Shown piece after piece: positions 3,819 through 63,730 of a stretch of DNA of 64,000 nucleotides. Under the pieces are notes generated by a model. The model saw only the letters and a program-made list of their open reading frames with translations. It searched no databases and was not told the DNA's origin. Each line of letters starts with the position of its first letter. The first letter of the stretch is position 1. The translations under genes and the position numbers were made by a program. This DNA comes from a virus, in IMG/VR virus record IMGVR_UViG_3300045988_159113. One strand, given 5' to 3'.

Positions 3819-4673
3819 TTACTCGTTTTTGTATATTTCAGGATATGTATCCTTTCGAATTAGCTCCAAAATCGCCTTGTTAGCAGGTACCTTCATCCAG
3901 TTCAGGACAGCATCATCAGTAGCTCCAAGAACAATGTTATCGCCGTAGGTGTACAGCTTGTTCTTATAAATGATGACATTCTTATCCTTTGCCTCAATAA
4001 ACAACAAACGAAGTGAAATGTCGTCTCCTGTGTAGATCTCGATGATCTTCTCGGGATTCTTCCTCGCCTGTTCAAGCAGGAATTCCGTAACGTCTGCGTC
4101 CGGGAAGTTCTGCATGTTCTTACCAAGAAGGCGAGCCTTCAAAACTCGACCATCATAACCGCGCTCATCCTCATAAATAAAGTTAAGAGCATCGCGCAAA
4201 GTGGACATCTTGCGAACCTTGTTTGCGGCTTCAAGACCTGGACGATCAACATAAAGCTCAGCGGTACCATAACGGGGACGCTTGTTCTGCCAACCCATAG
4301 TGCCATCGATGAGATAGTTGCCGTTCTGATCCTTAGCCCAACGCTCGGGTGCAATCATGGGGTTATACTGTATAGCTTCCCACGTCGCCTTGTCCCTGGG
4401 CTTGTTAAGGTCGAAAGTCTGGCCGTCAGTAATGGTAAAGACCGCATTCTCCTTAATATAAATATTGCCACTGTTCTTTTCCTTGTCTGTAAGAATCATA
4501 TCGCCCTTTGAGTCAACAGGCTTGACGCAATCAGGATATTCACCAGTTGCGGGATTCTTACAAGGATTCATAAAGTACTTGCCAACCTTGCCGTATACAC
4601 TTCTCAAAACGACAATGTTTGCCATAATGTCGCCATTTTTAACAGAAGCGACAGCAGATTCTTTTTTAGCCAT
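3819..4673 (-). CDS. Late protein of 284 aa, unknown function, TAG-free
   Basis: Intact track ORF (MAKKESAV...), TAA stop, flanked by hairpins. It lies immediately downstream of the capsid gene. Confidence 0.8.
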   Translation of the reverse strand: MAKKESAVASVKNGDIMANIVVLRSVYGKVGKYFMNPCKNPATGEYPDCVKPVDSKGDMILTDKEKNSGNIYIKENAVFTITDGQTFDLNKPRDKATWEAIQYNPMIAPERWAKDQNGNYLIDGTMGWQNKRPRYGTAELYVDRPGLEAANKVRKMSTLRDALNFIYEDERGYDGRVLKARLLGKNMQNFPDADVTEFLLEQARKNPEKIIEIYTGDDISLRLLFIEAKDKNVIIYKNKLYTYGDNIVLGATDDAVLNWMKVPANKAILELIRKDTYPEIYKNE

Positions 4674-4812: not shown

Positions 4813-7800
4813 TCAAGATAAAGCTGCGATCAATTTGTTATATTGCATCTTTTTATATGCACCTCTATAGCTCACACTATAGTTCAGACTATATCATCAC
4901 TTTCGTGTCGGGCACTCGTGTTTGGATTATTGCTCGCGTTGCTCACCAATTAGTCGTTAGCCTTTATCTGTACATTTAACGCTTCCAGATATTAGGACGG
5001 GATTTTCCACTTTCGGACCTTCCCCGTTTCCACCCGATTTTCTCATTATAAAAATGAGCCTCAAATTTTCTTGATTATATAACGTTTTTTATACATATAT
5101 CCATCTTGATAAGCTTTGCGCATTGAGTTTGCATTTATATTTAGGTTTGGATTTTGTTTTGCAAAATCATTTATAGGCATGATATATTTTTTATTTGTCT
5201 CTGTATCTATTATTAAGCGTGCTATTTTTCTTAAATTAGAAATTTTAGATCTTGTTGCATCGCTTACTATTTTATTTTTATGATACAAACCTATTTTGAT
5301 TTTTGTTTCCTCGCTTACATAATGCCCACGTAATTTTTGGCTCAGAATATTCTTCGTTTCTTCCGTGTGATGTTTTCCAAACATTCCGTTTTCAACTCCA
5401 AATCTTTTGCGTTTGGAAATCCATTCTTTATTTTGTTTGGTTCCAGAACAGTCTGGAGTATAACCAAAATATCTGTTTATACAAAAATCATCAAATTCGC
5501 AAATCTTCAAAAGATGAACTTCATAATCATTAGCATCTTTTCTAGTTCTAAATGTTTTAATTATGATCTTTTGTAATTTATATCTATTTGTTTCTATATA
5601 TGATTTTGTCCAAATAGAACTAGAGCCCATATATGAGTCATTGCAAATATCACATTTGCAACTACGTACCCCGATATAATATCTGTTAGTTTCGGTATTA
5701 TATATCATATATGTATAATGATTCATAAATTGCTATATATATATATTTAAGGATTAAACACAGCTACGCCAGAGTATCCCCATGCGATAAGCTTGCTAGC
5801 GGCTACGGGGCTGCTTACTGCGCCGCCCTGGAGACCAGTCTTGCCGCCTACGCCCAGGATTTCGTTCTGGATGTACAAAAATGTTAATCTTACTGTTATC
5901 AGTAAGTTCAGACTATATCTTTGATATTATTCAATATATTTAAACACAAAACCCTTTGCCATATCAACTTTTCCACTTAGGCATCTGCCAACATTTGTGA
6001 ATTCTTTTCGGCATGATTTTACACTTTCAAAAACTTTTACAAGTTCTCCTTCTTTCGTATATTGCCCAACTTTACGTTTTGCTCCTTTCCCAACTCTAGA
6101 TGTTATATCATGCATTTTTAGTGGGTTTTCAAAATTCCATTGAAAATTACGTATGCATAATCCAGAAGATGCAACTTTGTGTAATCTTAAAGGCGTTAAG
6201 GAAAATCTTTCACAAAAGTTTTCAATACAATCACTATCAATAAAATTGCCATTCAAATCATATCGAAACACAATTCGTTGTAAATCAACATGCAAGCTGA
6301 TGCGTTCGTTGTATGAATAGTAGAATTTGTTGATTGCCGTCTGTTTATAGATGGCGTTTTTGATTTGTTCAGAAGAAACGTCGGCATCTAGTGCTGCTTG
6401 ACTTAAACTACTAAATACATTAATCAAATTGCAATATCTATCAAATTTATAAACCGTTTTGCAAAATGTAGTTATTTTAAAGTCTGCCAAATTTATTTCC
6501 GGATCTGTTGACCATAAAAAATTCAAATAGCTTGTCTTTGTTTTATATGCACTTATTAATGCAGAACTAGTATTTGCACCTACAGATTCTGATGCAATTT
6601 TCACTGATTTGTATTTTGCAATAAATTCGCCATTTAAATCAAACTGGTATATTGGTATCTCAAATTTTAAACTATGGATTCCGCCAGTTGTTTGATTATA
6701 CGTGTCATTTCTATTGATAAACTTATTATCAACAAGGAGTTGCTCAACAAGCAATGCCTCTTCTTCTGTATCGTATATTCCAATAGTGTATCTTTTAAAT
6801 TTACCAAATCCGTACTTTTTTATTGCATTACCGAAATTTGTTTTTGGTTTTCTATAAGTTGATGGCATATTGCTATATATGCCATTACCATAATAATAAT
6901 CAAATATATTTGGATTTGTTTTGTGTACTCCAATATATATTTTGTTGTTTTGTGTGTTTACTGTTAAATAAACAATAAATTTTTTAATATCATTTTCCAT
7001 TTTGATTTTCTGATAAAAATCTATGCTTTTAAAAGCTAGTCGTTGAACGTTATTCATAGGCTTCATATCGCTTGCCTTTTTAGAATATTCGCTGCTGATT
7101 GTCTAAAATTGTATATTTTCAAGCATTCGCATTTATCATTTCTGATTATGCTGTAGCTATACAATTATAAAGAGTTCCCAGCAATTAAGAAAATTAGGAG
7201 ACTATCCGTCAATCTCCGCCCTTCAGTGTGAACATCGCAATAGGAGGCTGTGTGCTGCTCTTGTCTGCTGTCAAATCAAGACAGAGAGCATAGCCTTTCT
7301 CATCATTTGTGTTAGCTATATATCACTATATAGATCAGACTATATCTTGACCTTGTCAAAGGTCGTTCCCATTTCGATTTCTCTAAGTTTTTCACTAGTC
7401 GTTAGACATTACCGCATAATTACGCAGTAATAGCTCCAGATTGTCTTTTTAGACTTTCCTGGATTTAAGGAACAGATCAATGCAGCTCACGCTGCAAGGG
7501 GTCTAAGAATTAAACCATATTCACGGCTGAAGGTACGATCAACAGCAAATGTGATGCTGTTGCCACCAAACTCATACGTATCGAAAGTTGCTCCCACCTT
7601 CACGTAGTCATTGGCCTGCTTAGACCAAAGAAAAGTGTTATCAGCGTGGAAGTGAGCCAAGAAGTCAAACAACTCGGCCTGGACTGAATGCCAGAATCTT
7701 TCGTTACCAAATCAAAACTGATTCAGACTATATCATTGACTTATAAAAAGCCAGGCTCCGTTTCCATTTGTACCCTATATTAGGTAGTCGTTGAATATCA

Positions 7801-10800
7801 GCGCATATTTACGCGCTGTTTACTGCTGATTAGTCGAAACTTTCCAGCAATTAGAAGCCTTTAATCGAGGAGCTTTCACTCCAAGTATCCCTAACTTGAG
7901 ATAAATACGTATTTGTTACCTGTAGGTTTCTGCGCCTTCTCTCCCATCATAGACAGAACAGTACGGAATACCTCCATACTGAGCTTGTTGTATGCATACT
8001 TGGAAGCGAAGCGCTCAACCTGAGGAATAATCAAAAATATTATCACATGCCGTTTATGCATGCCTCTCACACTTCTTATTTGTGTAAGTTTAGACTATAT
8101 CTTCATCCTTCGCGGATGGGTGCTGTTCGTGGGTTTCCCTAGTCGTTACACTTATCGCTCGGTATTCTCATCTCAGAGTTCACCGATTTAAGCACCTTTT
8201 CATTAATTTATCACTAAATTACGGGGCATTACTCTACCCTCACCTATATAAATCAAACTGTTATCTCTACGTCTCCATAGAGTTCAGACTATACCTTTAA
8301 CTCATTTTCTTATACTTCAAAATATACGGATCATTTACCATTGGTTTTCTCAATATGCGTATCTGTTCCTCTGTTAATTCTTTCGTGGAACTATACAACT
8401 TGACGAGATTTCCTTTTAGGTCATACTGCTCAACTTTCCGAGCAACCGGCGCGTTTGTTGCGATCCATTTATCCATTTTATCATAAGACCATTTATAGCC
8501 TCTGCATGCGCGGTTCATCTTTATCGCGCGAATGATCTTTCCTGTGCTGATGTTTGGCGTTCCCTTAGCTGCTTCTTTAATAGAATCAAAAGCTGCATCA
8601 AACTCACCTTTCAATGTGTACCGGTAAACAGGCACTGTAGTTGTCAATTCTATCGCTGACTTTTTACCAAGCACCTTTCGTATATCCTCAGATACACGCA
8701 TGAATCGGTATCCGCTACATGTTGAACGCATTGATACAGCACGAGCTATAGCATCTTTTGGTATATCAAGCTGAGCAGCAGCAGATGGGATATCACGGTA
8801 TGTATTGATAAGTATGCCATCCCTGTTGTACTGTGCAATAGCACCACGTGGCATGTTGGAATAAAGATCAACATCTATAGACTCATCAAAAGAGAGATAG
8901 ACATCTTTACAGTTTGTGCGTGTATTGATGCATATGATCACGTGTTCTTTCGATACATGCAAATCATCAGCTGCTTCATCAACGCTATCCCACTTTCCGA
9001 CATGACCACCAGAGAACGTGAACGCGTTGACTCTTTGTCTACTGCAAATGCTGGGAGATGCAATCGAGTTGTAGTTGTCGGTTCTCTTTATAAAATCCTC
9101 GTTGACAATCAACATATAGAAATCAGTTGCATCATTGATATTGTTAAATTCTTTTAACGTTATCCTCTTGAAAGCATTGATTCCATGACGCTGCACCGCA
9201 CTCTGAAGTTGTGTCTTGCTCTTGTTGTATGATTCCGGTAGATGTATATCTACACCATCGCCAAGATAACCATCAAACACTTCTGGATCATTCACCTTGT
9301 GAATACCTACGTAAATCTTGCCATTATCAAGATTAATTGTTTCAAATACTATAAATTTCATGAGTTATTCCCCGTTTCCGCTTTCGCGTATTATAAAATT
9401 ATCAGTCGTTGAACTAATACAAATCTTTACTTGTATTTAGCTGCTGGTTGTCCGTTAGAGTTTCCAGCAATTAAAGGAATCTATTTTTACTAATCTCGCA
9501 ATTAGCCGACCCATTTATATATAGGTCTGTTTGTGTCGGGATCGAAAATGGTAGGCTTACCATTGGCCACAATAAAAGTAGACTATATCATTAGTTTTCA
9601 CTATTTCCCGTTTCCGTCAAACTTATCCTGTACTAGGTAGTCGTTGAACGAATCAAAAGAAAACTTTTGATTTCGCTGCTGATTAGCTTGCCGCTTTCCA
9701 GCAATTAGAGAAATTTTTCGTGGACGTCAATCCATCCACGTTGCACTTGTTAAAGAGAAGCAATAATTCAATATGTTGCCATATTGTTTAGACTATATTT
9801 TGAGATCTTGATATCTCTGCGCTCTTTCACTACTTACTCTAAAAATAGATAGTCGTTGAACGTATCGCGATATATTTCGCGATTTCGCTGCTGATTGTCC
9901 TTTTAGGATTTTCCAGCAATTAAGCGCATTTTATAATGGCATCTCCTTCTTTTTAAAAAAAACTTCACGTCGATTCCATTATTTCTGACATACATGAAAG
10001 ACTCCATAAGGGCCTTCTCCTTCTTGTCTAATCTGTAAATTGTTTCTGACAACTTTCCGTTATCCTTACCCTGTCCGATAGAAATGAAAGTATCCTCATG
10101 TGCAGCATAGAGGCTAGAGAACGAATCATCACAACGGTGTGTGGTGATGTAGTTCCGCATCTTGCTGATATTCAATGTGTTAGCTTATAGTTTCCTATAA
10201 GATCAGACTATATCATTAGGTCATGAACCTAGTTTCCGTTTCTAAAAATACGGCTATTGCCTAGTCGTTGAACCAAATTTCGCACTTGCTAAATTTTGGC
10301 TGCTGATTATCCTTTTGGATTTCCCAGCAATTAGAAAACTTTTTTCTTTAGAAATGTCTAAAGGAGCAATATCTCACTCTGATACTTTACATACAATTTT
10401 GTTAATCAATATGTTTCCATATTGTTCAGATTATATCTTGGTTTTTCAAACCTATTCCGTTTTAAAAATTACGTCATATTGACTAATCGTTGAACATTAC
10501 GCGATAATTATCGCGTATTTGCTGCTGATTACCATTTTAAGGCTTCCAGCAATTAGAAATATTTTAAGAGGGCATATGTTGCATTTTCCCTCTTCATGCA
10601 TTTCGGGCATTGCATTGCTCAAGAACCTGGTAGTCATACCAAGCTGGCAACCTGACTTGTCGAGAACCGAACTGTAGTCGTTATCGACCAAGCGAACGAT
10701 CACCTTCCAGTAGTTATCACTAACGCGAACAGGACGTGCTACAACGAAGCACTGCTGACCTGTAGCGTCAATCTGGAAGATATCATACTTTTCATAGTAG

Positions 10801-12437
10801 CGCTCTTTGAATGCCATGGTGATCTCGCTACCGTTTGCGCCATCCTCAACGGGAACATCAGCGAACTCAATGCGCTTGATGTCATTGGTGCTAACCTCCC
10901 ACTCAAACAATTATGTTATCTTTATGTTGCCATAAAGTTCAGACTATATCATTTGCTATATTTAAATATAAAGTCGCCATGTTCTTTAATGCCTTTTAAA
11001 ATTCTAGAAGCAGATGCAGAATTCAAATTATATTTTTCTTTCATTACTTTTACACTATCTAAGATTTCTATAAGATTGCCACACTTATCATACACTTCTA
11101 TTTTTCTCATATGTGAATGTTTGTTTGGCATTTCCGAAATCTTTTCTAGAGATAAATAATAATCTTTATACCATCCGCAGTTGTCATTTATTGCAGCATT
11201 AATTTTTTTAAATGAATGCAATTTTATAGCATTCATTATTTCCTTACCAACAAATTCTCCTATAAATCCTGATCCAAATTTATATAAAAATATATGTGCA
11301 TTTTTAATTTGTGCTCTATTTTTAGGTATAAATTCATCGTACAAAGAATCAGAAACAAACATGTTTTTAATTTTTGTTTGGTTTCTTATTGCATTACTAA
11401 TAGATTGAGAAGTACATTTCAAATAATTTGCACATTCTTTTCTGGAACAAAAATAAGAAACTAGTTTACCGCTTGAATTATATAAATATGTAATTTTATA
11501 TATTTTTTGTGTAAACTTTTTAATATCTATTGTTTCTTCTCTACTCCATAAAGAATTTAAAAATATGGTTTTGTCTGTTATTGCCCAATTAAATCTGGAA
11601 TATTCAAACCCATAAAAATCACATGCATCTAATGTACTATCCCATTTTTTTAACAATTCACCATTCAAATCAAACTGATATAAAATTTTTGAATGCACTT
11701 TTGGACTTATACATTCTAGAGATCCCCCAATTCCACCAATAGCAATGTTGTATGTATAATCTTGTTTAATAAAATTAAAATCAACTATTTTGCGCTCTTT
11801 ATCAAAAGCTTCATTTTTATTGTCGTATATATATAATACAGAACGAATAAAAGATTTAGTTCCATATTTTTTTACAGCATATTGAAATGGTGTTTTTGGA
11901 TACATATAACTTGATGGCTTGTTTACATAAACACCACAACCGATATATCCATCAAAGATTTCTGGGTTTTCTGTTTTGTGTACTCCAACATAAATTCTAT
12001 TTATACCATTAATTTTGGATTTTATGTTTGTTGTTAAGTAAACTATATATTTCATAGCAATTCAGTTTTTCGACTATTTTTTTTAGTCTACGGCTTTCGC
12101 CTAGTCGTTGAACACTCCAGCCATCGCTGGCATGCTGCTGATTGTCCTTTTAGGATTTTCCAGCAATTTAAAGAATTTATTCATGTCGTATCACTACGAC
12201 CGTGTACTTAATTATTAAATACATTGAGTTGATGCTCTGATACTTATTCCCAGACTTGTTATCCTAGTAGAAAATGTTTCTCAGAGACTCGGTGAGGTAG
12301 GCTGCGGTGCAGTCCTCATACATACGGCTCACTACGCCGAAGAGCTCCGGCTTTGTACCAAGAATCTTGCTAAAAGACTCATAGGTTCTTGTACTGCCCA
12401 TTTCAGGGTTCAGATTTTTAAAAGTTGCAACTTGCAT
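4813..12437 (-). CDS. Putative major capsid protein gene split into about 12 exons by 11 group I introns
   Basis: ATG at 12437 (MQVATFKNLNPEMG...), just downstream of an acidic scaffold-like gene. Exon pieces such as FEWEVSTNDIK, NISKMRNYITTH, IIPQVERFASKY, GNERFWHSVQAELFDFLAHF, NTNDEKGYALCLD and YIQNEILGVGGKTG are separated by blocks carrying group I P/Q/R/S elements. Summed exons give about 480 aa. The capsid identity is by position only. Confidence 0.6.
4831..5755 (-). mobile_element. Group I intron 11 with a GIY-YIG/NUMOD3 homing-endonuclease ORF (different intron subtype); 5' boundary approximate
   Basis: R is CTAACGACTAA and S is GATATAGTCTGA. P9 is CTATAG-tgtgag-CTATAG. The 3' end ..ACAAATTG|ATC GCA GCT TTA TCT TGA gives a 5-codon last exon. 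The ORF sits near the 5' side of the intron. Confidence 0.6.
5061..5726 (-). CDS. GIY-YIG homing endonuclease with NUMOD3-like repeats
   Basis: Intact 221-aa ORF with N-terminus YTYMIYNTETNRYYIGV. Repeated HTEETKxKIS / SEETKIKIG motifs. It ends in TGA and contains no TAG. Confidence 0.8.
   Translation of the reverse strand: MNHYTYMIYNTETNRYYIGVRSCKCDICNDSYMGSSSIWTKSYIETNRYKLQKIIIKTFRTRKDANDYEVHLLKICEFDDFCINRYFGYTPDCSGTKQNKEWISKRKRFGVENGMFGKHHTEETKNILSQKLRGHYVSEETKIKIGLYHKNKIVSDATRSKISNLRKIARLIIDTETNKKYIMPINDFAKQNPNLNINANSMRKAYQDGYMYKKRYIIKKI
5876..7211 (-). mobile_element. Group I intron 10 with a GIY-YIG homing-endonuclease ORF
   Basis: P1 GGAGAU.G/AGTCTCC places the 5' splice site after ..GGC GGA GAT. 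P, Q, R (inside the ORF start) and S are present. P9 is TTACTG-ATAA-CAGTAA. The 3' end reads ..ATTTTTG|TACATC. The junction is ..FTLKGGD|YIQNEIL.. Confidence 0.75.
5927..7066 (-). CDS. GIY-YIG homing endonuclease
   Basis: Intact 379-aa ORF containing KKFIVYLTVNTQNNKIYIGVHKT. It has repeated YQFDLNGEF / VFRYDLNGNF modules, ends in TAA and contains no TAG. Confidence 0.8.
   Translation of the reverse strand: MKPMNNVQRLAFKSIDFYQKIKMENDIKKFIVYLTVNTQNNKIYIGVHKTNPNIFDYYYGNGIYSNMPSTYRKPKTNFGNAIKKYGFGKFKRYTIGIYDTEEEALLVEQLLVDNKFINRNDTYNQTTGGIHSLKFEIPIYQFDLNGEFIAKYKSVKIASESVGANTSSALISAYKTKTSYLNFLWSTDPEINLADFKITTFCKTVYKFDRYCNLINVFSSLSQAALDADVSSEQIKNAIYKQTAINKFYYSYNERISLHVDLQRIVFRYDLNGNFIDSDCIENFCERFSLTPLRLHKVASSGLCIRNFQWNFENPLKMHDITSRVGKGAKRKVGQYTKEGELVKVFESVKSCRKEFTNVGRCLSGKVDMAKGFVFKYIE
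7316..7512 (-). mobile_element. Group I intron 9 (no ORF, covarying P/Q)
   Basis: P1 is GGTU.G TAA-ttc-TTAGACC. P2 is GCAGC-GTGA-GCTGC. P AAATCCAGGAAAG covaries with Q AATCTGGAGC. The junction ..TAT GGT T|CT AAC ACA is in frame. Confidence 0.7.
7713..7900 (-). mobile_element. Group I intron 8 (no ORF)
   Basis: P1 TCTCAAG/CTTGGAG has a U.G pair. P2 is GGAGT-GAAA-GCTCC. P/Q/R/S are present. The junction ..GTA TTT AT|A TTT GGT restores the frame of ORF 7487-7672. Confidence 0.7.
8032..8235 (-). mobile_element. Group I intron 7 (no ORF, variant P/Q)
   Basis: A P1 U.G pair follows ..GAG GGT. P2 is ATTTA-GTGA-TAAAT. P AAATCGGTGAAC covaries with Q ATACCGAGC. R is GTAACGACTAG and S is GATATAGTCTAA. 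The 3' end reads ..ATTTTTG|ATTATT. Confidence 0.65.
8254..9522 (-). mobile_element. Group I intron 6 with a GIY-YIG homing-endonuclease ORF
   Basis: P1 GACC-U.G...GGGTC places the 5' splice site after ..AGA CCT. Elements seen: P TTTAATTGCTGGAAA, Q CAACCAGCAGC, R GTTCAACGACTGA, S GGTATAGTCTGA. The 3' end reads ..CAGTTTG|ATTTAT. Confidence 0.7.
8297..9361 (-). CDS. GIY-YIG homing endonuclease
   Basis: Intact 354-aa ORF with N-terminus KFIVFETINLDNGKIYVGIHKV. It has repeated DNA-binding modules, ends in TAA and contains no TAG. Confidence 0.8.
   Translation of the reverse strand: MKFIVFETINLDNGKIYVGIHKVNDPEVFDGYLGDGVDIHLPESYNKSKTQLQSAVQRHGINAFKRITLKEFNNINDATDFYMLIVNEDFIKRTDNYNSIASPSICSRQRVNAFTFSGGHVGKWDSVDEAADDLHVSKEHVIICINTRTNCKDVYLSFDESIDVDLYSNMPRGAIAQYNRDGILINTYRDIPSAAAQLDIPKDAIARAVSMRSTCSGYRFMRVSEDIRKVLGKKSAIELTTTVPVYRYTLKGEFDAAFDSIKEAAKGTPNISTGKIIRAIKMNRACRGYKWSYDKMDKWIATNAPVARKVEQYDLKGNLVKLYSSTKELTEEQIRILRKPMVNDPYILKYKKMS
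9568..9729 (-). mobile_element. Group I intron 5 (no ORF, about 162 nt); boundaries tentative
   Basis: P/Q/R/S elements are present and P6 is GAAATCAAAAG-tttt-CTTTTGATTC. The P1 candidate CGTGGA..TCCACG has two possible registers. The phase-0 junction gives ..SATWMD|ANGKPTIF.. Confidence 0.55.
9769..9965 (-). mobile_element. Group I intron 4 (no ORF); 5' boundary approximate
   Basis: P/Q/R/S elements are present. P9 AATATG-GCAA-CATATT is followed by G|AATTATTGC. Confidence 0.65.
10173..10376 (-). mobile_element. Group I intron 3 (no ORF); 5' boundary approximate
   Basis: P/Q/R/S elements are present (TCTAATTGCTGGGA, AATCAGCAGC, GTTCAACGACTA, GATATAGTCTGA). P9 is TTATAG-GAAA-CTATAA. The 3' end reads ..CACATTG|AATATC. 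Confidence 0.65.
10407..10595 (-). mobile_element. Group I intron 2 (no ORF); 5' boundary approximate
   Basis: Elements seen: P TCTAATTGCTGGAAG, Q AATCAGCAGC, R GTTCAACGATTA, S GATATAATCTGA. P9 AATATG-GAAA-CATATT is followed by G|ATTAAC. Confidence 0.65.
10908..12218 (-). mobile_element. Group I intron 1 with a GIY-YIG homing-endonuclease ORF
   Basis: P1 hairpin TGTAT|TTAAT-aat-ATTAAGTACA has a U.G pair at the splice site. Elements seen: P TAAATTGCTGGAAA, Q AATCAGCAGC, R GTTCAACGACTA, S GATATAGTCTGA, and P9 TTTATG-GCAA-CATAAA. Omega-G precedes TTTGAG. Both junctions are in phase 0 (..SINSMY|FEWEV..). Confidence 0.8.
10949..12055 (-). CDS. GIY-YIG homing endonuclease with repeated NUMOD/IENR-like DNA-binding modules
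   Basis: Intact 368-aa ORF. N-terminus KYIVYLTTN...RIYVGVHKT. Repeated YxFDLNGELxxxW/F modules. It lies between intron elements R and S, ends in TGA and contains no TAG. Confidence 0.8.
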   Translation of the reverse strand: MKYIVYLTTNIKSKINGINRIYVGVHKTENPEIFDGYIGCGVYVNKPSSYMYPKTPFQYAVKKYGTKSFIRSVLYIYDNKNEAFDKERKIVDFNFIKQDYTYNIAIGGIGGSLECISPKVHSKILYQFDLNGELLKKWDSTLDACDFYGFEYSRFNWAITDKTIFLNSLWSREETIDIKKFTQKIYKITYLYNSSGKLVSYFCSRKECANYLKCTSQSISNAIRNQTKIKNMFVSDSLYDEFIPKNRAQIKNAHIFLYKFGSGFIGEFVGKEIMNAIKLHSFKKINAAINDNCGWYKDYYLSLEKISEMPNKHSHMRKIEVYDKCGNLIEILDSVKVMKEKYNLNSASASRILKGIKEHGDFIFKYSK

Positions 12438-47027: not shown

Positions 47028-47045
47028 TCATTCGCTCATTACTAG

Positions 47046-47121
47046 TAGGGACGCCAGGATTCGAACCCGGTCCAAGAGGGTTAGAGCCTCCTGTGCAATG
47101 AACCACATACACCACATCCCT
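47046..47121 (-). tRNA. Amber-suppressor tRNA, anticodon CUA (reads UAG)
   Basis: Minus-strand sequence AGGGATG TG GTGT-atgtggttcatt-GCAC A GGAGG-CTCTAAC-CCTCT TGGA CCGGG-TTCGAAT-CCTGG CGTCCCT A. The fold has a 7-bp acceptor stem, a 4-bp D stem with GG in the loop, and a 5-bp anticodon stem. The anticodon loop has U33-CUA-A37, and the T-loop is canonical. CCA is not encoded. Confidence 0.85.
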
Positions 47122-58026: not shown

Positions 58027-58584
58027 ATGATCGATCCAGAAGTCGAGCTCACTAGAGCTCTTGAGAACCCTGACAATGTGAAGGGTTCCTCTTTCACCGG
58101 CGCAATGCGCAGCGGTGAGATGTTAAACACCGTAGATGGCGATGTCATCATTATGCCTGCTTCTCTCGAGGAGCTTGATGGCAAGATCATCACGCACAAG
58201 AACTTGCGCAATGCGCAGAGTATCATGTGCCGTGCCATCAACAACGGTGTTGAGAAAGTTGTGGAATTTTGGCCTAACTCTTTGTGCCGTGTTGGCCAGG
58301 AGTATACCAAGGCTGACTTCGAGGGTGCTATTGCTCACCGCACTGGCAACACATTCCCCAACGAGGGCGAAGTAGTGGATACAGTCAAGAACTGTCCCAC
58401 TGTTGCTAAGGCTATGGAGCAGCTGTATGGTAAGGCCATCAAATTCACCAAGCTCAAGGACTACACAACAGTCCGTTTCGGTACAAACGACCTTCGTGAT
58501 ACCAACAGTTGGACCATTGAGTTTGTTCCGGTGCCTGGTGCTGCTCCTACTCGTCCATCAGGTGGTAGTCGTTCACGCCGTTGA
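58027..58584 (+). CDS. Early-block protein (185 aa) with an Arg/Ser-rich tail
   Basis: Intact track ORF with a TGA stop. C-terminus ..GAAPTRPSGGSRSRR. Confidence 0.65.
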   Translation: MIDPEVELTRALENPDNVKGSSFTGAMRSGEMLNTVDGDVIIMPASLEELDGKIITHKNLRNAQSIMCRAINNGVEKVVEFWPNSLCRVGQEYTKADFEGAIAHRTGNTFPNEGEVVDTVKNCPTVAKAMEQLYGKAIKFTKLKDYTTVRFGTNDLRDTNSWTIEFVPVPGAAPTRPSGGSRSRR

Positions 58585-58596
58585 GAACTGTATTCG

Positions 58597-58633
58597 GGAG
58601 GCTATGCAGTGAGAACTGCATAGTCCTCTTTGA
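58597..58633 (+). terminator. Intrinsic terminator
   Basis: GAGGCTATGCAG-tgagaa-CTGCATAGTCCTC followed by TTTG. Confidence 0.6.
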
Positions 58634-58642
58634 TGGTACAAA

Positions 58643-58707
58643 AATCCCTGTCAGGCAGAATAGCTGTCCCGTAAATGTATACGGGTGGTTTCTACTTGAC
58701 AGGGATT
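58643..58707 (+). ncRNA. Y-shaped, tRNA-like structure lacking a T-arm (tentative)
   Basis: An 11-bp closing stem AATCCCTGTCA/TGACAGGGATT encloses a D-arm-like GGCA-gaatagc-TGTC and a hairpin CCCGTA-aatg..-TACGGG. Confidence 0.35.
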
Positions 58708-58908
58708 GTATTCTCAAATTCGTACGTCGCCATGGTTGAGTATCAGCACTTTAGTAACGGTGGAATAATTTATTGCACTGGTTCTGGTCTCGAATGTAAT
58801 GATGCGGAGTTGGTGCGTGTTGCCTTACGTCGTGAATACGACAGTACAGGTTTAGCGTACCAACTTCGTATTTTGGAAATTGCGTCCCAACTTGGGATAC
58901 ACTTATAG
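58675..58908 (+). CDS. Possible small ORF (77 aa) overlapping the structured-RNA region
   Basis: Track ORF only. There is no A-rich leader. It ends in TAG, which would be the only TAG terminator in the window. Confidence 0.25.
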   Translation: MYTGGFYLTGIVFSNSYVAMVEYQHFSNGGIIYCTGSGLECNDAELVRVALRREYDSTGLAYQLRILEIASQLGIHL

Positions 58909-58951
58909 CCTGTGTTATGGAAAACGACATGTTCGAGTCATGTCACAGGCA
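58885..58951 (+). ncRNA. Degenerate copy of the hairpin plus tRNA-like minihelix element
   Basis: The hairpin TCCCA-act-TGGGA is followed by TA. The minihelix is GCCTGTG ..12 nt.. ACATG-TTCGAGT-CATGT CACAGGC A. Confidence 0.5.
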
Positions 58952-58972
58952 CTTTTGTATCATATTGTCATA

Positions 58973-59047
58973 ATCACACGGTCTGTGAAGATAGTGTGGT
59001 TTTAATTCCCTGAGTGGTATAACCAGGTTCGAATCCTGGCAGGGGAA
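58973..59047 (+). ncRNA. Hairpin plus tRNA-like acceptor/T-arm minihelix element, copy E0
   Basis: The hairpin is ATCACAC GG TCT-GTGA-AGA TA GTGTGGT. The minihelix is TTCCCTG ..10 nt.. CCAGG-TTCGAAT-CCTGG CAGGGGA A. Confidence 0.65.
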
Positions 59048-59075
59048 CGAATTTTAAAAAATTCAAAATAAAGTA

Positions 59076-59240
59076 ATGCAATACATCGCTTACCTCTGGA
59101 ACGGTAGGACTCATGACAAGTATGCCATGTTGTCTTACGTTGGAGAGGAAGAGTTGGATGCTTTCAAAAAGAGAGTGAAGTCATGCTATCCCTATACTCA
59201 GGGATGGTATGCTGAATTCTCTGTTTTTGAGAGAATCTAA
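59076..59240 (+). CDS. Small protein (54 aa; too short to appear in the track)
   Basis: ATG at 59076: MQYIAYLWNGRTHDKYAMLSYVGEEELDAFKKRVKSCYPYTQGWYAEFSVFERI, then TAA at 59238. Confidence 0.4.
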   Translation: MQYIAYLWNGRTHDKYAMLSYVGEEELDAFKKRVKSCYPYTQGWYAEFSVFERI

Positions 59241-59318
59241 CTCGACTTGGGTTATGCTTCCCAAGGTGTAGACAAAAAGCAACCTTTCAACAAAAAATAA
59301 ACAAAAAAAACAAAGAAG

Positions 59319-59699
59319 ATGAAAAATTCGAAAATTCATGATTGCAAGATTGTTGATGATGTATCTATACACAACTCTATTCTTAGAGAGTCTCGTATAG
59401 GAGGCATTTCCAACATCGTTAATTCGACAGTCTGCAATTGTATTATTAACGATTGTGTGATTAGAAATTGTACTGTGAAGGCTTCTGTCCTTCGCAATGC
59501 AATAATAAATGGCAAAGAATGCTGTGTTAGCTTGAAATTAGGCCAAATGGCATGTGTGCCAAAAGCATACAAGAGTTATGCAGTAACGATAGACAACGAC
59601 CGTATAAACATGCTCTTTATTTCCGACAAGAACGTGTGGGAATTTGATGTGTGTTCACCAGAAGAGCTGCTAATTGCGCTCAAATTCCATCGTGTATGA
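59319..59699 (+). CDS. Hexapeptide-repeat (left-handed beta-helix-like) protein, paralog of 61688-62116
   Basis: Intact ORF. Six-residue periodicity IHDCKI VDDVSI HNSILR ESRIGG ISNIVN STVCNC IINDCV IRNCTV. The C-terminal ..NVWEFDV..ELLIALKFH matches ..GVWAFSK..FLDFIKDY in the paralog. Confidence 0.65.
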   Translation: MKNSKIHDCKIVDDVSIHNSILRESRIGGISNIVNSTVCNCIINDCVIRNCTVKASVLRNAIINGKECCVSLKLGQMACVPKAYKSYAVTIDNDRINMLFISDKNVWEFDVCSPEELLIALKFHRV

Positions 59700-59923
59700 T
59701 ATGGTCCACTTCCGATGACTCCAAACTCCTCGAGTTGTGGAGTCATCACTACACTGTCAATGCTATCTGCTCAATATTGGGCAGAAGCAAAAGCAGCGTA
59801 TATAAACGCATAGAGAGGTTAAAAACAAACAAAAAAAACAAAGATGAACACAAACGAATTTCTTGGCAAAGTGCTTCCAAGAACTGCTATGTCCAAAGAG
59901 GAGATGGCAAAGACCGTCTCTGA
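59696..59923 (+). CDS. Small Myb/SANT-like HTH protein (75 aa)
   Basis: Start is an ATGA overlap. Sequence MIWSTSDDSKLLELWSHHYTVNAICSILGRSKSSVYKRIERL. The 3' part overlaps the next ORF. Confidence 0.45.
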   Translation: MIWSTSDDSKLLELWSHHYTVNAICSILGRSKSSVYKRIERLKTNKKNKDEHKRISWQSASKNCYVQRGDGKDRL

Positions 59924-60047
59924 TGCGAGTGAAGACTCGCTATTCCGCGATGTCGAGAAGTCAGCCAGAATGATGGGTGACAACTCCGGCATCTGTGGAA
60001 TGTTGAGCTCTGAGGAGGTTTCCGAAACTGCTTCGCGCCTCTTCTAA
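59844..60047 (+). CDS. Small acidic protein (67 aa)
   Basis: Track ORF. The leader AAACAAAAAAAACAAAGATG is nearly identical to the leader of 59319. Confidence 0.55.
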   Translation: MNTNEFLGKVLPRTAMSKEEMAKTVSDASEDSLFRDVEKSARMMGDNSGICGMLSSEEVSETASRLF

Positions 60048-60100
60048 TCCTATAAGCCCTGCCGTGTATTACGGCGGGGCAACCTTTAACATTAAGAAAC

Positions 60101-60319
60101 ATGAATAAGATCAAAAAGGCCATCAGGAGCCTTAATCCTGTTATTCGCACCGCCATAATTTTGGTGGTAGCGTTTATTGCCGCTATGCTTAGTGGCTTCT
60201 TCTTTGGGCACTATCTAGGTAACTCGTCGCCCATCAACTTCTTTGTATTGGTTGTATTTGCAACCTTTGTAATAGTTGGTGTTTATGTTCACCTTATTGA
60301 AGATAGCGATGATGAGTAA
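60101..60319 (+). CDS. Small membrane protein (72 aa)
   Basis: Track ORF with two hydrophobic segments and an acidic tail. Confidence 0.6.
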   Translation: MNKIKKAIRSLNPVIRTAIILVVAFIAAMLSGFFFGHYLGNSSPINFFVLVVFATFVIVGVYVHLIEDSDDE

Positions 60320-60500
60320 AACATACCAAGCCCTGATCAAAATGATCATCGAGGGCAAGACTGGCGAGGAGTATAAAAAGCTACTCGCTGGTTTAGATGA
60401 GAGCGAGAGAAAAGAGATAAAGGAGTATGAGAAGAAGTTCAAGGAGACTAAACTTGCACAAAAGGCTGCCGAGAATTTCTTTAATGTATTCGGAGTATAA
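60309..60500 (+). CDS. Small Lys/Glu-rich protein (63 aa)
   Basis: First ATG of ORF 60276-60500. It overlaps the previous stop. Confidence 0.5.
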   Translation: MMSKTYQALIKMIIEGKTGEEYKKLLAGLDESERKEIKEYEKKFKETKLAQKAAENFFNVFGV

Positions 60501-60513
60501 AAAAGATAGAGAT

Positions 60514-60750
60514 ATGAAAAGTAAGATAATAACCTGGTGGCATCAGTGTGGTGCCTTCATTACCATCCTGCTTGCTTACGCCGTAGCAACAGGGTCTGCG
60601 ATATACGGCGTAGAGATAGCCAGAAAGTACAATGATATCTTCTGGTTGGTGTTCGCCATTATGGTTGGGCTCTTGATTTCCCTGTTTATAGGGATTGTAT
60701 ACCAAGAGTTCACTATTGAGGAACTTTTAAAGGATGATGACAATGACTAA
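60514..60750 (+). CDS. Small membrane protein (78 aa)
   Basis: Internal ATG (MKSKIITWWHQCGAF) of ORF 60427-60750. Two TM segments and an acidic tail. Confidence 0.55.
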   Translation: MKSKIITWWHQCGAFITILLAYAVATGSAIYGVEIARKYNDIFWLVFAIMVGLLISLFIGIVYQEFTIEELLKDDDND

Positions 60751-61096
60751 TAAGGAAATAGCCGACCGTATCAATTCGGCGATGCTCCCAGACGTGGAGT
60801 TGTCTCCGAGTTCTTTTCGGGCTACACTCATTGAGTGTGGCCTGAAATATAGCAACATGACCGCGTACATTATCCGCCAGTGTTCAACTTGTTTTGAGGA
60901 AAGACAGGTCGGAAATAACAACAAGCGGATTCGTCGAGTTCGACCTGTGACAGCTGAGGTCATCAAGAAAACCTACGAGCTGAAATCATGTCACCGTACA
61001 AAAGCGGTGAAACTTGAAGAAAAGGAGCTTCTCGAAGATCAGCGAGCAATCGCTCGTTTGAAAAAGAGAGGCTATCTCGTTTTTAAACAACTTTGA
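60734..61096 (+). CDS. Basic protein (120 aa), possibly DNA-binding
   Basis: Track ORF with a TGA stop. Confidence 0.55.
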   Translation: MMTMTNKEIADRINSAMLPDVELSPSSFRATLIECGLKYSNMTAYIIRQCSTCFEERQVGNNNKRIRRVRPVTAEVIKKTYELKSCHRTKAVKLEEKELLEDQRAIARLKKRGYLVFKQL

Positions 61097-61134
61097 CACT
61101 TTGTCGTTTTTAGTTATATTTTGTTGAAAGGATA

Positions 61135-61210
61135 CCTACACGGTTCGTGAGAATAGTGTGGGTTTATTCTATGCTGTATGGAGTAAGTGGTTCGAATCTA
61201 CACATAGGAA
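61135..61210 (+). ncRNA. Hairpin plus tRNA-like minihelix element, copy E1
   Basis: The hairpin is CCTACAC GG TTC-GTGA-GAA TA GTGTGGG. The minihelix is TTCTATG ..12 nt.. AGTGG-TTCGAAT-CTACA CATAGGA A, followed by CAAG. Confidence 0.65.
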
Positions 61211-61264
61211 CAAGATTTGCAAGCATACGATTATTCATTATTTGATCTTTTTTTATTGGGATGT

Positions 61265-61294
61265 TGTGGCATCACTCGTGAGAGCCATGCCACA
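61265..61294 (+). ncRNA. Solo GUGA-capped hairpin of the same family (no minihelix)
   Basis: TGTGGCAT CA CTC-GTGA-GAG CC ATGCCACA. Confidence 0.5.
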
Positions 61295-61315
61295 TATGTG
61301 TTTTTCATGGTTGTA

Positions 61316-61383
61316 TTGATACCGTCCGTGAGGATAGTATCAATTTTTTTACCTTGCGCAGGGTTCGACTCCCTACGCAAGGA
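61316..61383 (+). ncRNA. Hairpin plus tRNA-like minihelix element, copy E2
   Basis: The hairpin is TTGATAC CG TCC-GTGA-GGA TA GTATCAA, followed by T7. The minihelix is CCTTGCG C AGGG-TTCGACT-CCCT A CGCAAGG A, followed by CAAG. Confidence 0.65.
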
Positions 61384-61426
61384 CAAGATTTTGTTCTTGT
61401 TGATTCATAATTGTGAATGTATTGTC

Positions 61427-61496
61427 TCAACGCAGTCCGTGAGGATAGCGTTGATTTCCATAATGGTTTTTCGAGGTTCGATTCCTCGTAATGGAA
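61427..61496 (+). ncRNA. Hairpin plus tRNA-like minihelix element, copy E3
   Basis: The hairpin is TCAACGC AG TCC-GTGA-GGA TA GCGTTGA. The minihelix is TCCATAA ..8 nt.. CGAGG-TTCGATT-CCTCG TAATGGA A, followed by CACG and T6. Confidence 0.65.
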
Positions 61497-61526
61497 CACG
61501 TTTTTTACTTCTTTTTTAGACAGTTC

Positions 61527-61598
61527 CCAATGTGGTTCGTGAGAATAGCATTGGTTTTCCATAATGGTTTTTGTAGGGTTCGATTCCCTATAATGGAA
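61527..61598 (+). ncRNA. Hairpin plus tRNA-like minihelix element, copy E4
   Basis: The hairpin is CCAATGT GG TTC-GTGA-GAA TA GCATTGG. The minihelix is TCCATAA ..9 nt.. TAGGG-TTCGATT-CCCTA TAATGGA A, followed by CAAG. It lies exactly 100 nt after E3. Confidence 0.65.
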
Positions 61599-61609
61599 CA
61601 AGTGTTTTT

Positions 61610-61648
61610 CATGTTTCTTCCCCTACCTTGTTGCGTAATGCAACAGGT
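61610..61648 (+). terminator. Intrinsic terminator closing the RNA cluster
   Basis: CCCCTACCTTGTTGC-gtaat-GCAACAGGTGGGG followed by TTTTG. Confidence 0.55.
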
Positions 61649-61687
61649 GGGGGTTTTGTATTGATCACTAAACAAAACAAAGATAAA

Positions 61688-62116
61688 ATGGCTAAGATTA
61701 TTAACACAAAAGTCAGCGAAAAGGCTGACTTTAAAATAGAGGATGGCGTGATACGCGACTCTTCTATTAGCGACTGGTCAAAGGTGCATATCCACGACAT
61801 GAGTGAATTGAAAAATGTAAAGATTTATGGAGATGTTGATATAAAGCATTCGACTATTGAGAGTTGCGAACTCATCAACTGCTCCGTGAAAAACTCAACA
61901 ATTCGCAATATCGATATCAATAATGATTATTGTGTTGAGACTATCACGGACAATGAGATCTACATTCCAGCTGGATTTTTCAACTGTGAAGTTATCATAA
62001 ATGAAAAACTTGTAACTGCAAAGTTCCATATATATTCTGGTGTGTGGGCTTTCAGCAAGCACAACTTCCTTGATTTCATCAAGGACTACTACAAACTACA
62101 AGGAGGTGCTCATTGA
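61688..62116 (+). CDS. Hexapeptide-repeat (beta-helix-like) protein, paralog of 59319-59699
   Basis: First ATG (MAKIINTKVSEK) of ORF 61628-62116. It contains STIESCELINCSVKNSTIRNIDINN and ends in TGA. Confidence 0.6.
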   Translation: MAKIINTKVSEKADFKIEDGVIRDSSISDWSKVHIHDMSELKNVKIYGDVDIKHSTIESCELINCSVKNSTIRNIDINNDYCVETITDNEIYIPAGFFNCEVIINEKLVTAKFHIYSGVWAFSKHNFLDFIKDYYKLQGGAH

Positions 62117-62950: not shown

Positions 62951-63730
62951 TCACAATAACACATTCGCGAAGTCCTGGTTTTGCCGAATACCGTTCTCGT
63001 TATTGAGGTAATCTTTATTGATAGCCTTTCTGAGCAACGCATTCTCGCGAACTAGGGCTTCGTATTGTTCACGCATCTTACGGATAACGTCTTGATTTTG
63101 AGCTTTGATTTCCAAAAGCTGCTTCTTCAAATCTTCGATATCCTCCGTGTTCTTCTCTATCTGCTCTTCATGCTTTTTGAGCAAGAATACGATAGCCTGA
63201 CCGTAAGCTCTAATGTCATATACTTTTAAAGGTCTACGATCTCCTCCGTATTCAACATAATCTGGCACAGATTGATTGACACACGTGAGGTAGCCTTTAT
63301 TACGCAATGATGTGTTGTAAGAAGCAATGCTACGCCTTGACAATCCTATGTGGTCTGCAAGCTCTTTGTCTGTCATAGATATCTTGCCTGTCTGGCCATC
63401 ATCAAGACGCATGTATTGCTGTATCATTGCAAGATAACCCTTTTCCTCTATACTGAGATTTGGGTTATCCAAAAAGTCATCACTAAACCCCTGAAATGTC
63501 TTGTACTCGTTAAAGTGGTAAATGTTGCGATTATTGCGGCCTTTCGAGATTGCAATATATCCCGCCTTTTCCAAACGATCTACAGCTTCCAGTATGTACT
63601 TGCGGCTTAGGTGTAACTTTTCAGCGATAGTAGCAATTGATACAAACGTCTCGTGAGTTTCCCAGTTCTCATATCTCCTAAGTGTCAGATAGACCACCAC
63701 ATCCTTTGGTTTTATGATATTCGTAAGCAT
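62951..63730 (-). CDS. Double winged-helix protein with a C-terminal coiled coil (replication-initiator- or regulator-like)
   Basis: Intact 259-aa ORF with two wHTH-like segments (SIATIAEKLHLSRKYILEAVDRLEKAGYI and DKELADHIGLSRRSIASYNTSLRNKGYL). It is flanked by repeat arrays on both sides. Confidence 0.55.
   Translation of the reverse strand: MLTNIIKPKDVVVYLTLRRYENWETHETFVSIATIAEKLHLSRKYILEAVDRLEKAGYIAISKGRNNRNIYHFNEYKTFQGFSDDFLDNPNLSIEEKGYLAMIQQYMRLDDGQTGKISMTDKELADHIGLSRRSIASYNTSLRNKGYLTCVNQSVPDYVEYGGDRRPLKVYDIRAYGQAIVFLLKKHEEQIEKNTEDIEDLKKQLLEIKAQNQDVIRKMREQYEALVRENALLRKAINKDYLNNENGIRQNQDFANVLL

Follow-up and report, generated by a model that had tools for sequence, protein, structure and literature searches.

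A phage RNA element that joins a GNRA-capped hairpin to a tRNA-like half without an anticodon arm

The window, a 64 kb stretch of gut-phage DNA (64,000 nucleotides (nt) of IMG/VR record IMGVR_UViG_3300045988_159113), carries five copies of an RNA element in which a hairpin with a GUGA loop (module 1) is followed by a tRNA-like half made of an acceptor-like stem and a T arm (module 2). The copies are labelled E0 to E4, other viral loci are given by number (e.g. L061), and all results are computational. The element belongs to a covarying structured-RNA family shared with dozens of uncultivated related phages; tentatively, it may serve as tRNA-like punctuation of phage transcripts.

Several described systems share parts of this design. 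Plant mitochondrial t-elements and animal mitochondrial tRNA punctuation, reportedly described by Forner et al. 2007 and Ojala et al. 1981, are complete or partial tRNA folds within polycistronic RNA, at which RNase P and RNase Z make mRNA ends. In its proposed function, the phage element most resembles these systems. As in a t-element, a 7-bp acceptor stem is stacked on a 5-bp T stem (about 12 bp) and the T-loop is canonical (TTCGANT). Unlike the organellar systems, the element is found in bacterial DNA phages, is fused to a conserved GNRA hairpin and forms a sequence family with a fixed T-loop and GG; its cleavage is a prediction. In the MALAT1/MEN-beta-mascRNA system (RF01684), a protective structure also lies directly upstream of a tRNA-like RNA; RNase P cleavage generates the mature 3' terminus of the upstream RNA, and the small product is matured by RNase Z and CCA addition. 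That system is vertebrate and nuclear, its protector is a triple helix, and mascRNA has a cloverleaf-like fold. The mascRNA model gives the best relative (L060) 31.3 bits against a cutoff of 42.5; the window copies have no RF01684 match.

Phage T7 reportedly carries intercistronic RNase III sites (work of Dunn and Studier). There a host RNase cuts early polycistronic RNA between genes and a 3' hairpin stabilises the upstream mRNA, as may be the case here; however, RNase III acts on hairpins of roughly 20 bp with an internal loop, whereas the phage element is a tRNA mimic whose hairpin has 11 pairs and one mismatch. Small RNAs are linked to tRNAs in E. coli 3'ETS-leuZ, the MHV68 TMERs (tRNA-miRNA), plant tRNA-snoRNA and synthetic tRNA-gRNA arrays. 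In these, tRNA processing sets the ends of the adjacent RNA; in the phages, FopS-like seeds lie 4-8 nt past the tRNA(-like) 3' end. The known cases use full tRNAs or Pol III tRNA-like promoters, while the phage handle is an anticodon-less minihelix.

The tRNA-like domain of tmRNA (RF00023) likewise has an acceptor stem, a stemless D-loop analogue and a T arm but no anticodon arm. The elements differ in lacking a tag reading frame, pseudoknots and G3.U70, and in their size (40-60 nt as opposed to about 360 nt). ARAGORN finds no tmRNA in the window, and the tmRNA model finds a weak partial match in L077 (20.6 bits, cutoff 47). The put RNA of phage HK022 is a two-stem-loop RNA of temperate-phage early operons, with two sites per genome. 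It resembles the element in being a two-stem-loop RNA of roughly 70 nt in the early operons of temperate phages; there is no similarity in sequence or structure, and put has no tRNA features.

Through a 5' seed, GUGUUUUUCAUGG, the FopS/GibS small RNAs (sRNAs) of Bacteroides pair with susC-type mRNAs around the start codon; a homologue carried by a phage has also been described (PMC11697453). The likeness to FopS (RF04319; PMC11697453) lies in the single-stranded 5' seed, a hairpin with a GUGA-type loop and a U-run. FopS RNAs have their own promoters and no tRNA-like part; the FopS-like stretch of the window scores 20 bits against a cutoff of 56 and hence is not a member. The element is outside the tRNA, tmRNA, mascRNA and FopS families by their own thresholds.

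Structure and covariation of the element

A preliminary description of this DNA, made from its letters without database searches, had proposed five canonical copies. All five are present on inspection of the sequence:

E0 hairpin, 58973-59000, plus strand: ATCACAC / G.A / G.U / TCT-GUGA-AGA / GTGTGGT
E0 tRNA-like module, 59006-59047, plus strand: acceptor TTCCCTG/CAGGGGA, linker AGTGGTATAA, T arm CCAGG-TTCGAAT-CCTGG, A73, tail CGAA
E1, 61135-61210, plus strand: hairpin 61135-61162, tRNA-like module 61167-61210
E1 tRNA-like module, 61167-61210, plus strand: acceptor TTCTATG/CATAGGA, linker CTGTATGGAGTA, T arm AGTGG-TTCGAAT-CTACA
E2, 61316-61383, plus strand: hairpin 61316-61343, then U7 and A, minihelix 61352-61383; model score 54.7 bits
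E3, 61427-61496, plus strand: hairpin 61427-61454, tRNA-like module 61457-61496
E4, 61527-61598, plus strand: hairpin 61527-61554, tRNA-like module 61558-61598

The hairpin is 28 nt long in each copy. The outer stem, of 7 bp, has a distinct sequence in each of the five copies. Above it come an N.A mismatch and a G.U wobble, then an inner stem of 3 bp (TCT/AGA, TTC/GAA or TCC/GGA) closed by the GUGA loop, a GNRA-class tetraloop. The 'fixed NG...UA step' of the preliminary description is correctly read as the N.A mismatch plus the G.U wobble. A spacer of 2-8 nt, mostly U, leads to module 2. This consists of a 7-bp acceptor-like stem, a 0-12 nt linker and a 5-bp T stem with a TTCGA(A/C/T)T loop; the 3' acceptor strand is followed by an unpaired A and then C(A/G)(A/C)(G/A). 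Two details of the earlier picture need amendment. The T stem has 5 bp in general, but not in E1 (four pairs and an A.A mismatch) or E2 (four pairs and a C.A mismatch). The linker length of 0-12 nt stands, but the linkers are not plain spacers, since they contain a GG that corresponds to the D-loop. In E2, module 2 is a bare minihelix with 12 stacked positions and no linker (CCTTGCG-CAGGG-TTCGACT-CCCTA-CGCAAGG-A).

The exact motif GTGARRATAG occurs six times in the 64 kb; five occurrences are E0-E4 and the sixth (at 1787) has no hairpin. GGTTCGANTC also has exactly six occurrences in the window, namely the five copies and the one true tRNA. Further motif matches at 1787, 41452, 46581 and 3770 were judged on inspection to be due to chance. 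The minimum-energy fold given by RNAfold contains the hairpin in all five copies and both modules in E0, E2 and E4; the T-arm pairing in E1 and E3 departs from the tRNA-like reading. Folding z-scores range from -2.6 to -6.3.

MAFFT misaligns the 5' acceptor strand of full-length copies because the linkers vary from 0 to 58 nt; consequently, models were seeded with the real helices and loops, with the hairpin-acceptor spacer trimmed to 3 nt and the middle linker removed. In the 27 diverse copies used as seeds, 92.6% of cells are paired, a percentage biased upward by the pairing-demanding parser that picked the seeds and by linker trimming; sliding the 3' partners by 1-3 columns lowers the value to 37-46%. 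Double-sided changes are seen in 20 of the 23 base pairs. G53-C61 and G52-C62, which adjoin the T-loop, are invariant (27/27), and the hairpin G.U pair is present in 26 of the 27 seeds.

Because these pair counts lean towards structure, a pattern-match test and a leave-out covariance model were added; pair-type diversity and the pattern-match test are less exposed to the bias of seed selection. The pattern fixes the 3' half of the hairpin apex (loop onward) and the T-loop with three T-stem bases beside it (the last two of the 5' strand and the first of the 3' strand), leaving the other strands free. It has 87 unique matches. Complete pairing of the inner stem is seen in 64 of them, compared with 12 in an offset control; the three T-stem pairs that the pattern does not fix all form in 71, compared with four in the control. 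The leave-out model, built with no sequence from the window or from L061, has E0-E4 as its top five window matches (54.7-28.9 bits, E 1.3e-13 to 2.6e-6); the sixth match has 13.6 bits and E 0.05. L061 is a roughly 97%-identical relative of the window on a 197-kb contig. Between these otherwise near-identical sequences, the inner stem of E3 shows a compensatory double change, from TCC/GGA in the window to TCT/AGA in L061. The proposal of a covarying structured-RNA family is thus supported by pair changes, by the free-strand pattern test and by the leave-out model.

Three further features on the plus strand lie near the five copies:

Sixth element, tRNA-like module, 58908-58951, plus strand: acceptor GCCTGTG/CACAGGC, linker TTATGGAAAACG, T arm ACATG-TTCGAGT-CATGT, A73
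Hairpin of the sixth element, about 58885-58903, plus strand: without GUGA, precedes the 58908-58951 module
Solo GUGA-capped hairpin, 61265-61294, plus strand: GTGGCAT / internal loop / CTC-GUGA-GAG / ATGCCAC

The sixth element (58885-58951) had been called a degenerate copy. This does not hold for its tRNA-like half, which is intact, with a perfect 7-bp acceptor, a GG linker and a perfect 5-bp T stem. The combined covariance model does not score the element as a whole, and model R2 makes a weak match to its T arm only (58926-58944, 7.7 bits, E 2.6). The solo hairpin, also proposed earlier, is real by both sequence and folding.

Module 2 is not a tRNA, as had been stated. In the 64 kb, ARAGORN and Rfam call only one true tRNA, which has the anticodon CUA and lies at 47045-47121 on the minus strand; Rfam gives no tRNA match in 58500-62000 with the threshold relaxed to E <= 10. 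The window copies have only 0-12 nt between acceptor and T arm and form no cloverleaf. The anticodon arm is absent from every one of about 55 distinct variants. Their middle part ranges from nothing (E2) through D-loop-like linkers to D stems and extra arms; some relatives have a 4-bp D stem (CACG/CGTG in L003, CCTG/CAGG in L005) and a few variants have long extra arms (L043, L060).

The acceptor and T-arm features that tRNA enzymes read are kept, in agreement with the preliminary description: the invariant G-C pairs, the TTCGANT loop, the GG and a mismatch between positions -1 and 73. GG is present in 53/53 variants with a linker of 6 nt or more; judged from the sequence, it is the analogue of G18-G19 and would lock the T-loop into a tRNA elbow. 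In 49 of the 55 variants, A73 faces a mismatched A or C at position -1. The 3' tail is A-C-(A/U/G)-A; the elements never encode CCA, because the third tail position, equivalent to C75, is never C. The same tail is found on true tRNA genes in these phages: ACTAT and ACAAT (tRNA-Gln), ACAAC (tRNA-Met) and, in the window, ACTAG (the CUA tRNA, whose gene encodes A73-C-U-A and not CCA). Among the tRNA genes of the loci retrieved, 138 have a 3' tail that could be parsed, and 133 of these encode C74. True tRNA genes of the type A/B relatives, L018 and L019 have a hairpin 3-5 nt upstream, and in L060 a gap of 4 nt separates a tRNA-like element from the tRNA-Met downstream of it. In everything but the decoding half, the elements therefore resemble tRNA genes; the sub-threshold matches of relatives to the mascRNA and tmRNA models agree with this. 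Pair 3:70 is CG in 13, GC in 11 and UA in three of 27 copies and is never G.U; neither G3.U70 nor any other obvious identity element is present. Alanine identity, which G3.U70 would confer, is accordingly rejected.

Some related observations concern the true tRNAs. Many tRNA genes of these viral contigs (e.g. in L070, L079, L001, L019 and L060) have N73-C74, a non-C base and A (ACAAA, ACTAT) instead of CCA, a 3'-flank signature that they have in common. A second type of hairpin, in which a covarying stem of 6 bp bears an AGCG or CGCT loop, is located 2-4 nt before tRNA-Gln genes and one tRNA-like module (L001 about 5945-5968; L067 about 970-995; also L032, L034, L090 and L094). As it sits likewise, the layout of a hairpin followed by a tRNA or tRNA-like module is broader than the GUGA hairpin. 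Rfam also matches tRNAs with insertions of 27 nt and more in the anticodon-loop region (L019 4800-4892, minus strand; L045 4727-4854, plus strand); these are possibly intron-containing phage tRNAs.

The hairpin is also found without its partner. Fifteen unique solo hairpins, drawn from 26 that were not parsed as composite (about 10 of the 26 carry variant T-loops), have no downstream tRNA-like module; all are followed by a U-run, and this arrangement looks like an intrinsic terminator. In composite elements, the hairpin is followed by U7 in E2 and by U3-U4 in E0, E1 and E4; many relatives have CACAC or CGCA instead. None of the five copies is picked up by a simple terminator scan of the window. 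E4 is split in L061, where about 215 nt separate the hairpin, with U5 after it, from the tRNA-like half. An attenuator-like switch, in which the 3' strand of the hairpin pairs with the 5' acceptor strand, is confined to the 'type A' lineage and is therefore not general.

Distribution, placement and adjacent seeds

The family is widespread and essentially restricted to phages. A loose pattern, limited to the T-loop and to the hairpin loop plus the 3' strand of the apex, occurs in 97 IMG/VR loci, and the complementary 5' strands are present in about 95 of 124 pattern matches (judged by eye). About 70 IMG/VR loci bear the element. Structural parsing gives 68 unique composite elements in roughly 15 lineages. 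In 185,579 species-representative bacterial and archaeal genomes, a stricter pattern has 10 matches, three of which are true members; these are on two Prevotella contigs and one gut contig, all from metagenome-assembled genomes. BLASTN finds no match for the window region or for the elements of two relatives in 50,697 GenBank phage records.

The preliminary description did not recognise a named RNA family, and none was found: no Rfam 15 family matches the element. At E <= 10, the sole match in 58500-62000 is to FopS (61298-61353, which includes the E2 hairpin), with 20 bits, below the cutoff of 56, and E = 8.3. No description of the element was found in the literature searched; a 2023 catalogue of 10,006 viral candidate RNAs mentions tRNA-like candidates (PMC10690425), and the element may be one of the unnamed candidates there. 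ARAGORN miscalls some composites of hairpin and tRNA-like half as tRNA-Lys(ttt) or tRNA-Ala(agc) of 86-95 nt (L015 7252-7337, L026 11980-12072, L037, L047, L059, L062 and L078).

Across lineages, the elements are on the same strand as their conserved neighbours. The next ATG is no more than 60 nt from the acceptor end in 30 of 52 distinct cases, mostly at 15-37 nt (median 34); for E0, it is 29 nt away, at the open reading frame (ORF) 59076-59240. The genes which follow the elements are mutually unrelated. In temperate relatives, the gene order is a divergent CI-like repressor, Ant, small ORFs, two tandem elements, a 74-aa gene, Sak4, SSB and NinB. In L005, a sub-threshold match to the DUF2693-FD RNA motif (8549-8598, minus strand; 29.2 bits vs 44.5) lies about 34 nt downstream of a composite element.

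Sequences resembling the seeds of FopS/GibS sRNAs lie beside the window elements, and E1 is preceded by a promoter-like site:

Promoter-like site upstream of E1, 61093-61122, plus strand: TTGACA-16-TATATT, or alternatively TTTG...TATATTTTG of the Bacteroidota type; consensus match only
FopS/GibS R1-like seed GTGTTTTTCATGGT, 61298-61311, plus strand: single-stranded, just 5' of the E2 hairpin and U7
sRNA-like unit, 61602-61657, plus strand: begins 4 nt after A73 of E4; seed GTGTTTTTCATG at 61602-61613, terminator hairpin 61620-61653, UUUU

Within the sRNA-like unit, 61605-61619 is complementary at 14 of 15 positions to the start region of the phage's own ORF 60101-60319. In five cases, which represent four distinct lineages, a FopS/GibS-type seed begins 4-8 nt past the 3' end of a tRNA-like element: E4 of the window, its close relative L061, L077, L043 and L005. 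L077, which has a seed RNA at 4116-4154, gives a partial FopS match with 34.8 bits (Rfam cutoff 56). In 627 kb, 31 seeds are on the element strand and five on the opposite strand, with overlapping motif variants counted separately. In a separate scan, the seed also occurs just downstream of true tRNAs in other viral contigs; it is followed there by a terminator or, in L120, by a GNRA hairpin. L113, L115, L116 and L119 likewise bear seed RNAs of this kind directly after tRNA-like elements or true tRNAs. From these layouts in the window and its relatives, the recurring unit is a tRNA or tRNA-like module, a seed, a hairpin and the next tRNA-like module.

Proposed punctuation and competing explanations

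RNase P, RNase Z and the CCA-adding enzyme all accept minihelices as substrates, and CCA inhibits RNase Z. The element may be tRNA-like punctuation of phage transcripts that leaves upstream RNAs with a protective 3' hairpin, a reading drawn from sequence features and held tentatively, a little short of probable. The preliminary description had listed such a role among its possibilities, and the comparative data favour it: placement is intercistronic and co-oriented, the tail is that of tRNA genes, and seeds stand right after the 3' end. We infer that the elements are expressed and processed as follows. Module 2 would be a surrogate tRNA, pared to the parts which RNase P and RNase Z or the CCA-adding enzyme recognise, in which the GG analogue of the D-loop forms an elbow with the T-loop on the 7-bp plus 5-bp stack. 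RNase P would cut on the 5' side of module 2 in a polycistronic early RNA, and the tRNA 3'-end machinery would cut just after A73. The GNRA-capped hairpin, 0-9 nt upstream, would thereby become the 3' end of the upstream mRNA or small RNA and shield it from 3' exonucleases; elsewhere, the same hairpin with a U-run may serve as an intrinsic terminator. The downstream RNA would be freed either as an mRNA with a short A-rich leader or as a FopS-like sRNA with an exposed 5' seed.

A number of observations speak against punctuation. RNase P may act poorly on a substrate whose structured leader comes as close as 0-9 nt to the point of cleavage. A purely protective role leaves the conserved hairpin apex (N.A, G.U, YYY-GUGA-RRR) unexplained, and the very strong conservation of this apex points to a binding partner. 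A Bacteroidota-type -7 box (TAnnTTTG) lies 6-17 nt upstream of some copies; such promoter-proximal copies would have no upstream RNA to protect, because the hairpin would start the primary transcript. Short distances to the next ATG are weak evidence, since phage genomes are compact. The GNRA hairpin is missing upstream in 30 of 74 tRNA-like candidates (some of these are true tRNAs or false positives), so that the coupling of hairpin and tRNA-like half is frequent and not obligatory; several of the candidates without it carry a different hairpin. Finally, the E1-E4 array has no intervening ORFs and would equally suit products that act in trans.

In an unlikely alternative, the product is the matured, CCA-tailed minihelix itself, acting as a decoy or sponge for host enzymes or defence toxins. 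The targets could be MenT/AbiEii nucleotidyltransferases, CapRel-type pyrophosphokinases or HEPN nucleases that trim acceptor ends; host tRNA-handling factors could also be tied up. The multi-copy array in an early-gene region, the promoter-like site before E1, the -7 boxes before several relatives' copies and the essentially phage-restricted family are in keeping with a mimic of this kind, and the full elbow (T-loop and GG) and tRNA-type 3' flank imply tRNA-like maturation. However, the acceptor stems are highly diverse even within one genome, match no particular tRNA and have no G3.U70. Dispersal before unrelated genes, the link to an upstream hairpin and the downstream seeds are not predicted by a mimic, and no defence or counter-defence gene was found nearby among the flanking ORFs (PHROGs/Pfam) or the relatives' neighbours. 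Quite improbably, the element could instead control transcription in cis, as a put-like polymerase-modifying RNA or a modulated terminator whose GNRA apex contacts the polymerase or a phage factor. Its position in temperate relatives would suit this, in the early operon past the divergent CI-like repressor and Ant and before Sak4, SSB and NinB, as would the -7 box preceding several copies, a size of about 70 nt with two helices, an apex conservation far exceeding the needs of stability, and the terminator-like solo hairpins. On the other hand, the window has five to six copies in 2.7 kb and other loci have several each, where one per operon would be expected; the canonical T-loop, GG elbow and tRNA-gene 3' flank have no put-like role, and in many lineages the composite hairpin has no U-run (e.g. 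linker CACAC).

It is very improbable that the tRNA-like parts are non-functional remnants, i.e. decaying phage tRNA genes that lie beside terminators by chance. There is a continuum from the near-complete L005 (D arm, short extra arm; Rfam tRNA match of 33 bits) to the bare minihelix of E2, and the 3' flank is identical to that of true tRNA genes. Decay does not account for about 55 variants that all lack the anticodon arm and yet pair their acceptor and T stems through double substitutions and always keep GG, nor for a compensatory change between genomes that are ~97% identical, nor for window copies being found by a model from unrelated phages. A role at the level of DNA, as cassette boundaries or as recombination or insertion hotspots in a mosaic early region, is equally improbable. 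In its favour, the window and L061 lose synteny precisely at the junction of the E4 hairpin with its tRNA-like half, where L061 has an insertion of ~215 nt, and flanking genes differ between phages. The G.U pair (26/27 seeds) and the N.A mismatch are strand-specific, however, and would be C.A and N.T on the other strand; the T-loop consensus is an RNA feature, and no integrase or recombinase is consistently nearby.

A role as cofactor of the adjacent paralogous proteins had also been suggested and is not supported. The paralogy is real: ORFs 59319-59699 and 61688-62116 (plus strand) encode small proteins with 29% identity (E 2e-7). However, the genes after the element in other phages encode unrelated small proteins, and no conserved protein partner was found among element neighbours across lineages. 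The two paralogues have no Pfam or PHROG match; they have a repetitive I/N/S-rich pattern resembling a beta-helix. Three further candidates were rejected. Type III toxin-antitoxin RNA repeats do not fit, as the copies have diverged and no toxin gene is present; in a CRISPR-repeat mimic the outer stems would not differ from copy to copy; and a phage attP copy of a tRNA 3' end would not have a 5' acceptor strand covarying with the 3' strand.

If the element is tRNA-like punctuation, a wider picture can be drawn, which as a whole is rather doubtful. Gut and oral Bacteroidota phages would have their own tRNA-punctuation system, in which anticodon-less tRNA surrogates and the conserved GNRA 3' hairpin guide the host's RNase P and RNase Z in dividing early transcripts; the pieces would be stable mRNAs and arrays of sRNAs directed against start codons. 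These sRNAs would be FopS/GibS-like mimics that could reprogramme the translation of host glycan-uptake genes or the timing of phage genes. Freed CCA-tailed minihelices would be a possible second product, e.g. as decoys against defences that target the acceptor end.

The phage locus and its significance

With TAG read as sense, the window has 39 ORFs of 200 codons or more, as opposed to 21 otherwise. This gain, together with the CUA suppressor tRNA, indicates that the phage reads TAG as sense. The elements sit in a plus-strand block of small ORFs of unassigned function, by a DnaD-like replication initiator. Searches of ten flanking ORFs against PHROGs and Pfam gave a sole match, to a DnaD/replication-initiator-like protein at 62951-63730 on the minus strand. 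Assignment to Crassvirales is not confirmed, the PHROGs matches in the window being to a portal protein and homing endonucleases only.

Two other features of the window were observed. The 33 nt that abut the E1 hairpin (61099-61131) are 85% complementary to 59283-59315, the 5' leader of ORF 59319-59699, with a perfect 9-mer (CCTTTCAAC/GTTGAAAGG). An antisense seed and an inverted duplication of a promoter are both possible readings. Far from the elements, six group I introns (Rfam, 54-89 bits) lie within 3.3 kb at 7316-10633 on the minus strand, interleaved with three ORFs that match a homing-endonuclease PHROG (5927-7066, 8297-9361 and 10949-12055); this dense cluster presumably splits one or two genes.

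The family is an unannotated feature of many gut viromes, the copies of which are overlooked or miscalled by gene callers. The punctuation principle has hitherto been known from organelles, MALAT1 and engineered tRNA-gRNA arrays; if the proposed role is correct, this would be the first bacterial virus described with dedicated anticodon-less tRNA mimics as transcript punctuation. Bacteroidota hosts do not use initiation driven by Shine-Dalgarno sequences and rely on short, unstructured, A-rich leaders. Punctuation would account for the production of separate, stable mRNAs and small RNAs from the compact early operons of Bacteroidota phages, with no need for a promoter and a terminator at each gene. 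It would also give multiplexed RNA expression in Bacteroides a compact processing cassette of natural origin, and it would tie these phages to the network of FopS/GibS sRNAs by which polysaccharide utilisation is controlled in gut Bacteroides.

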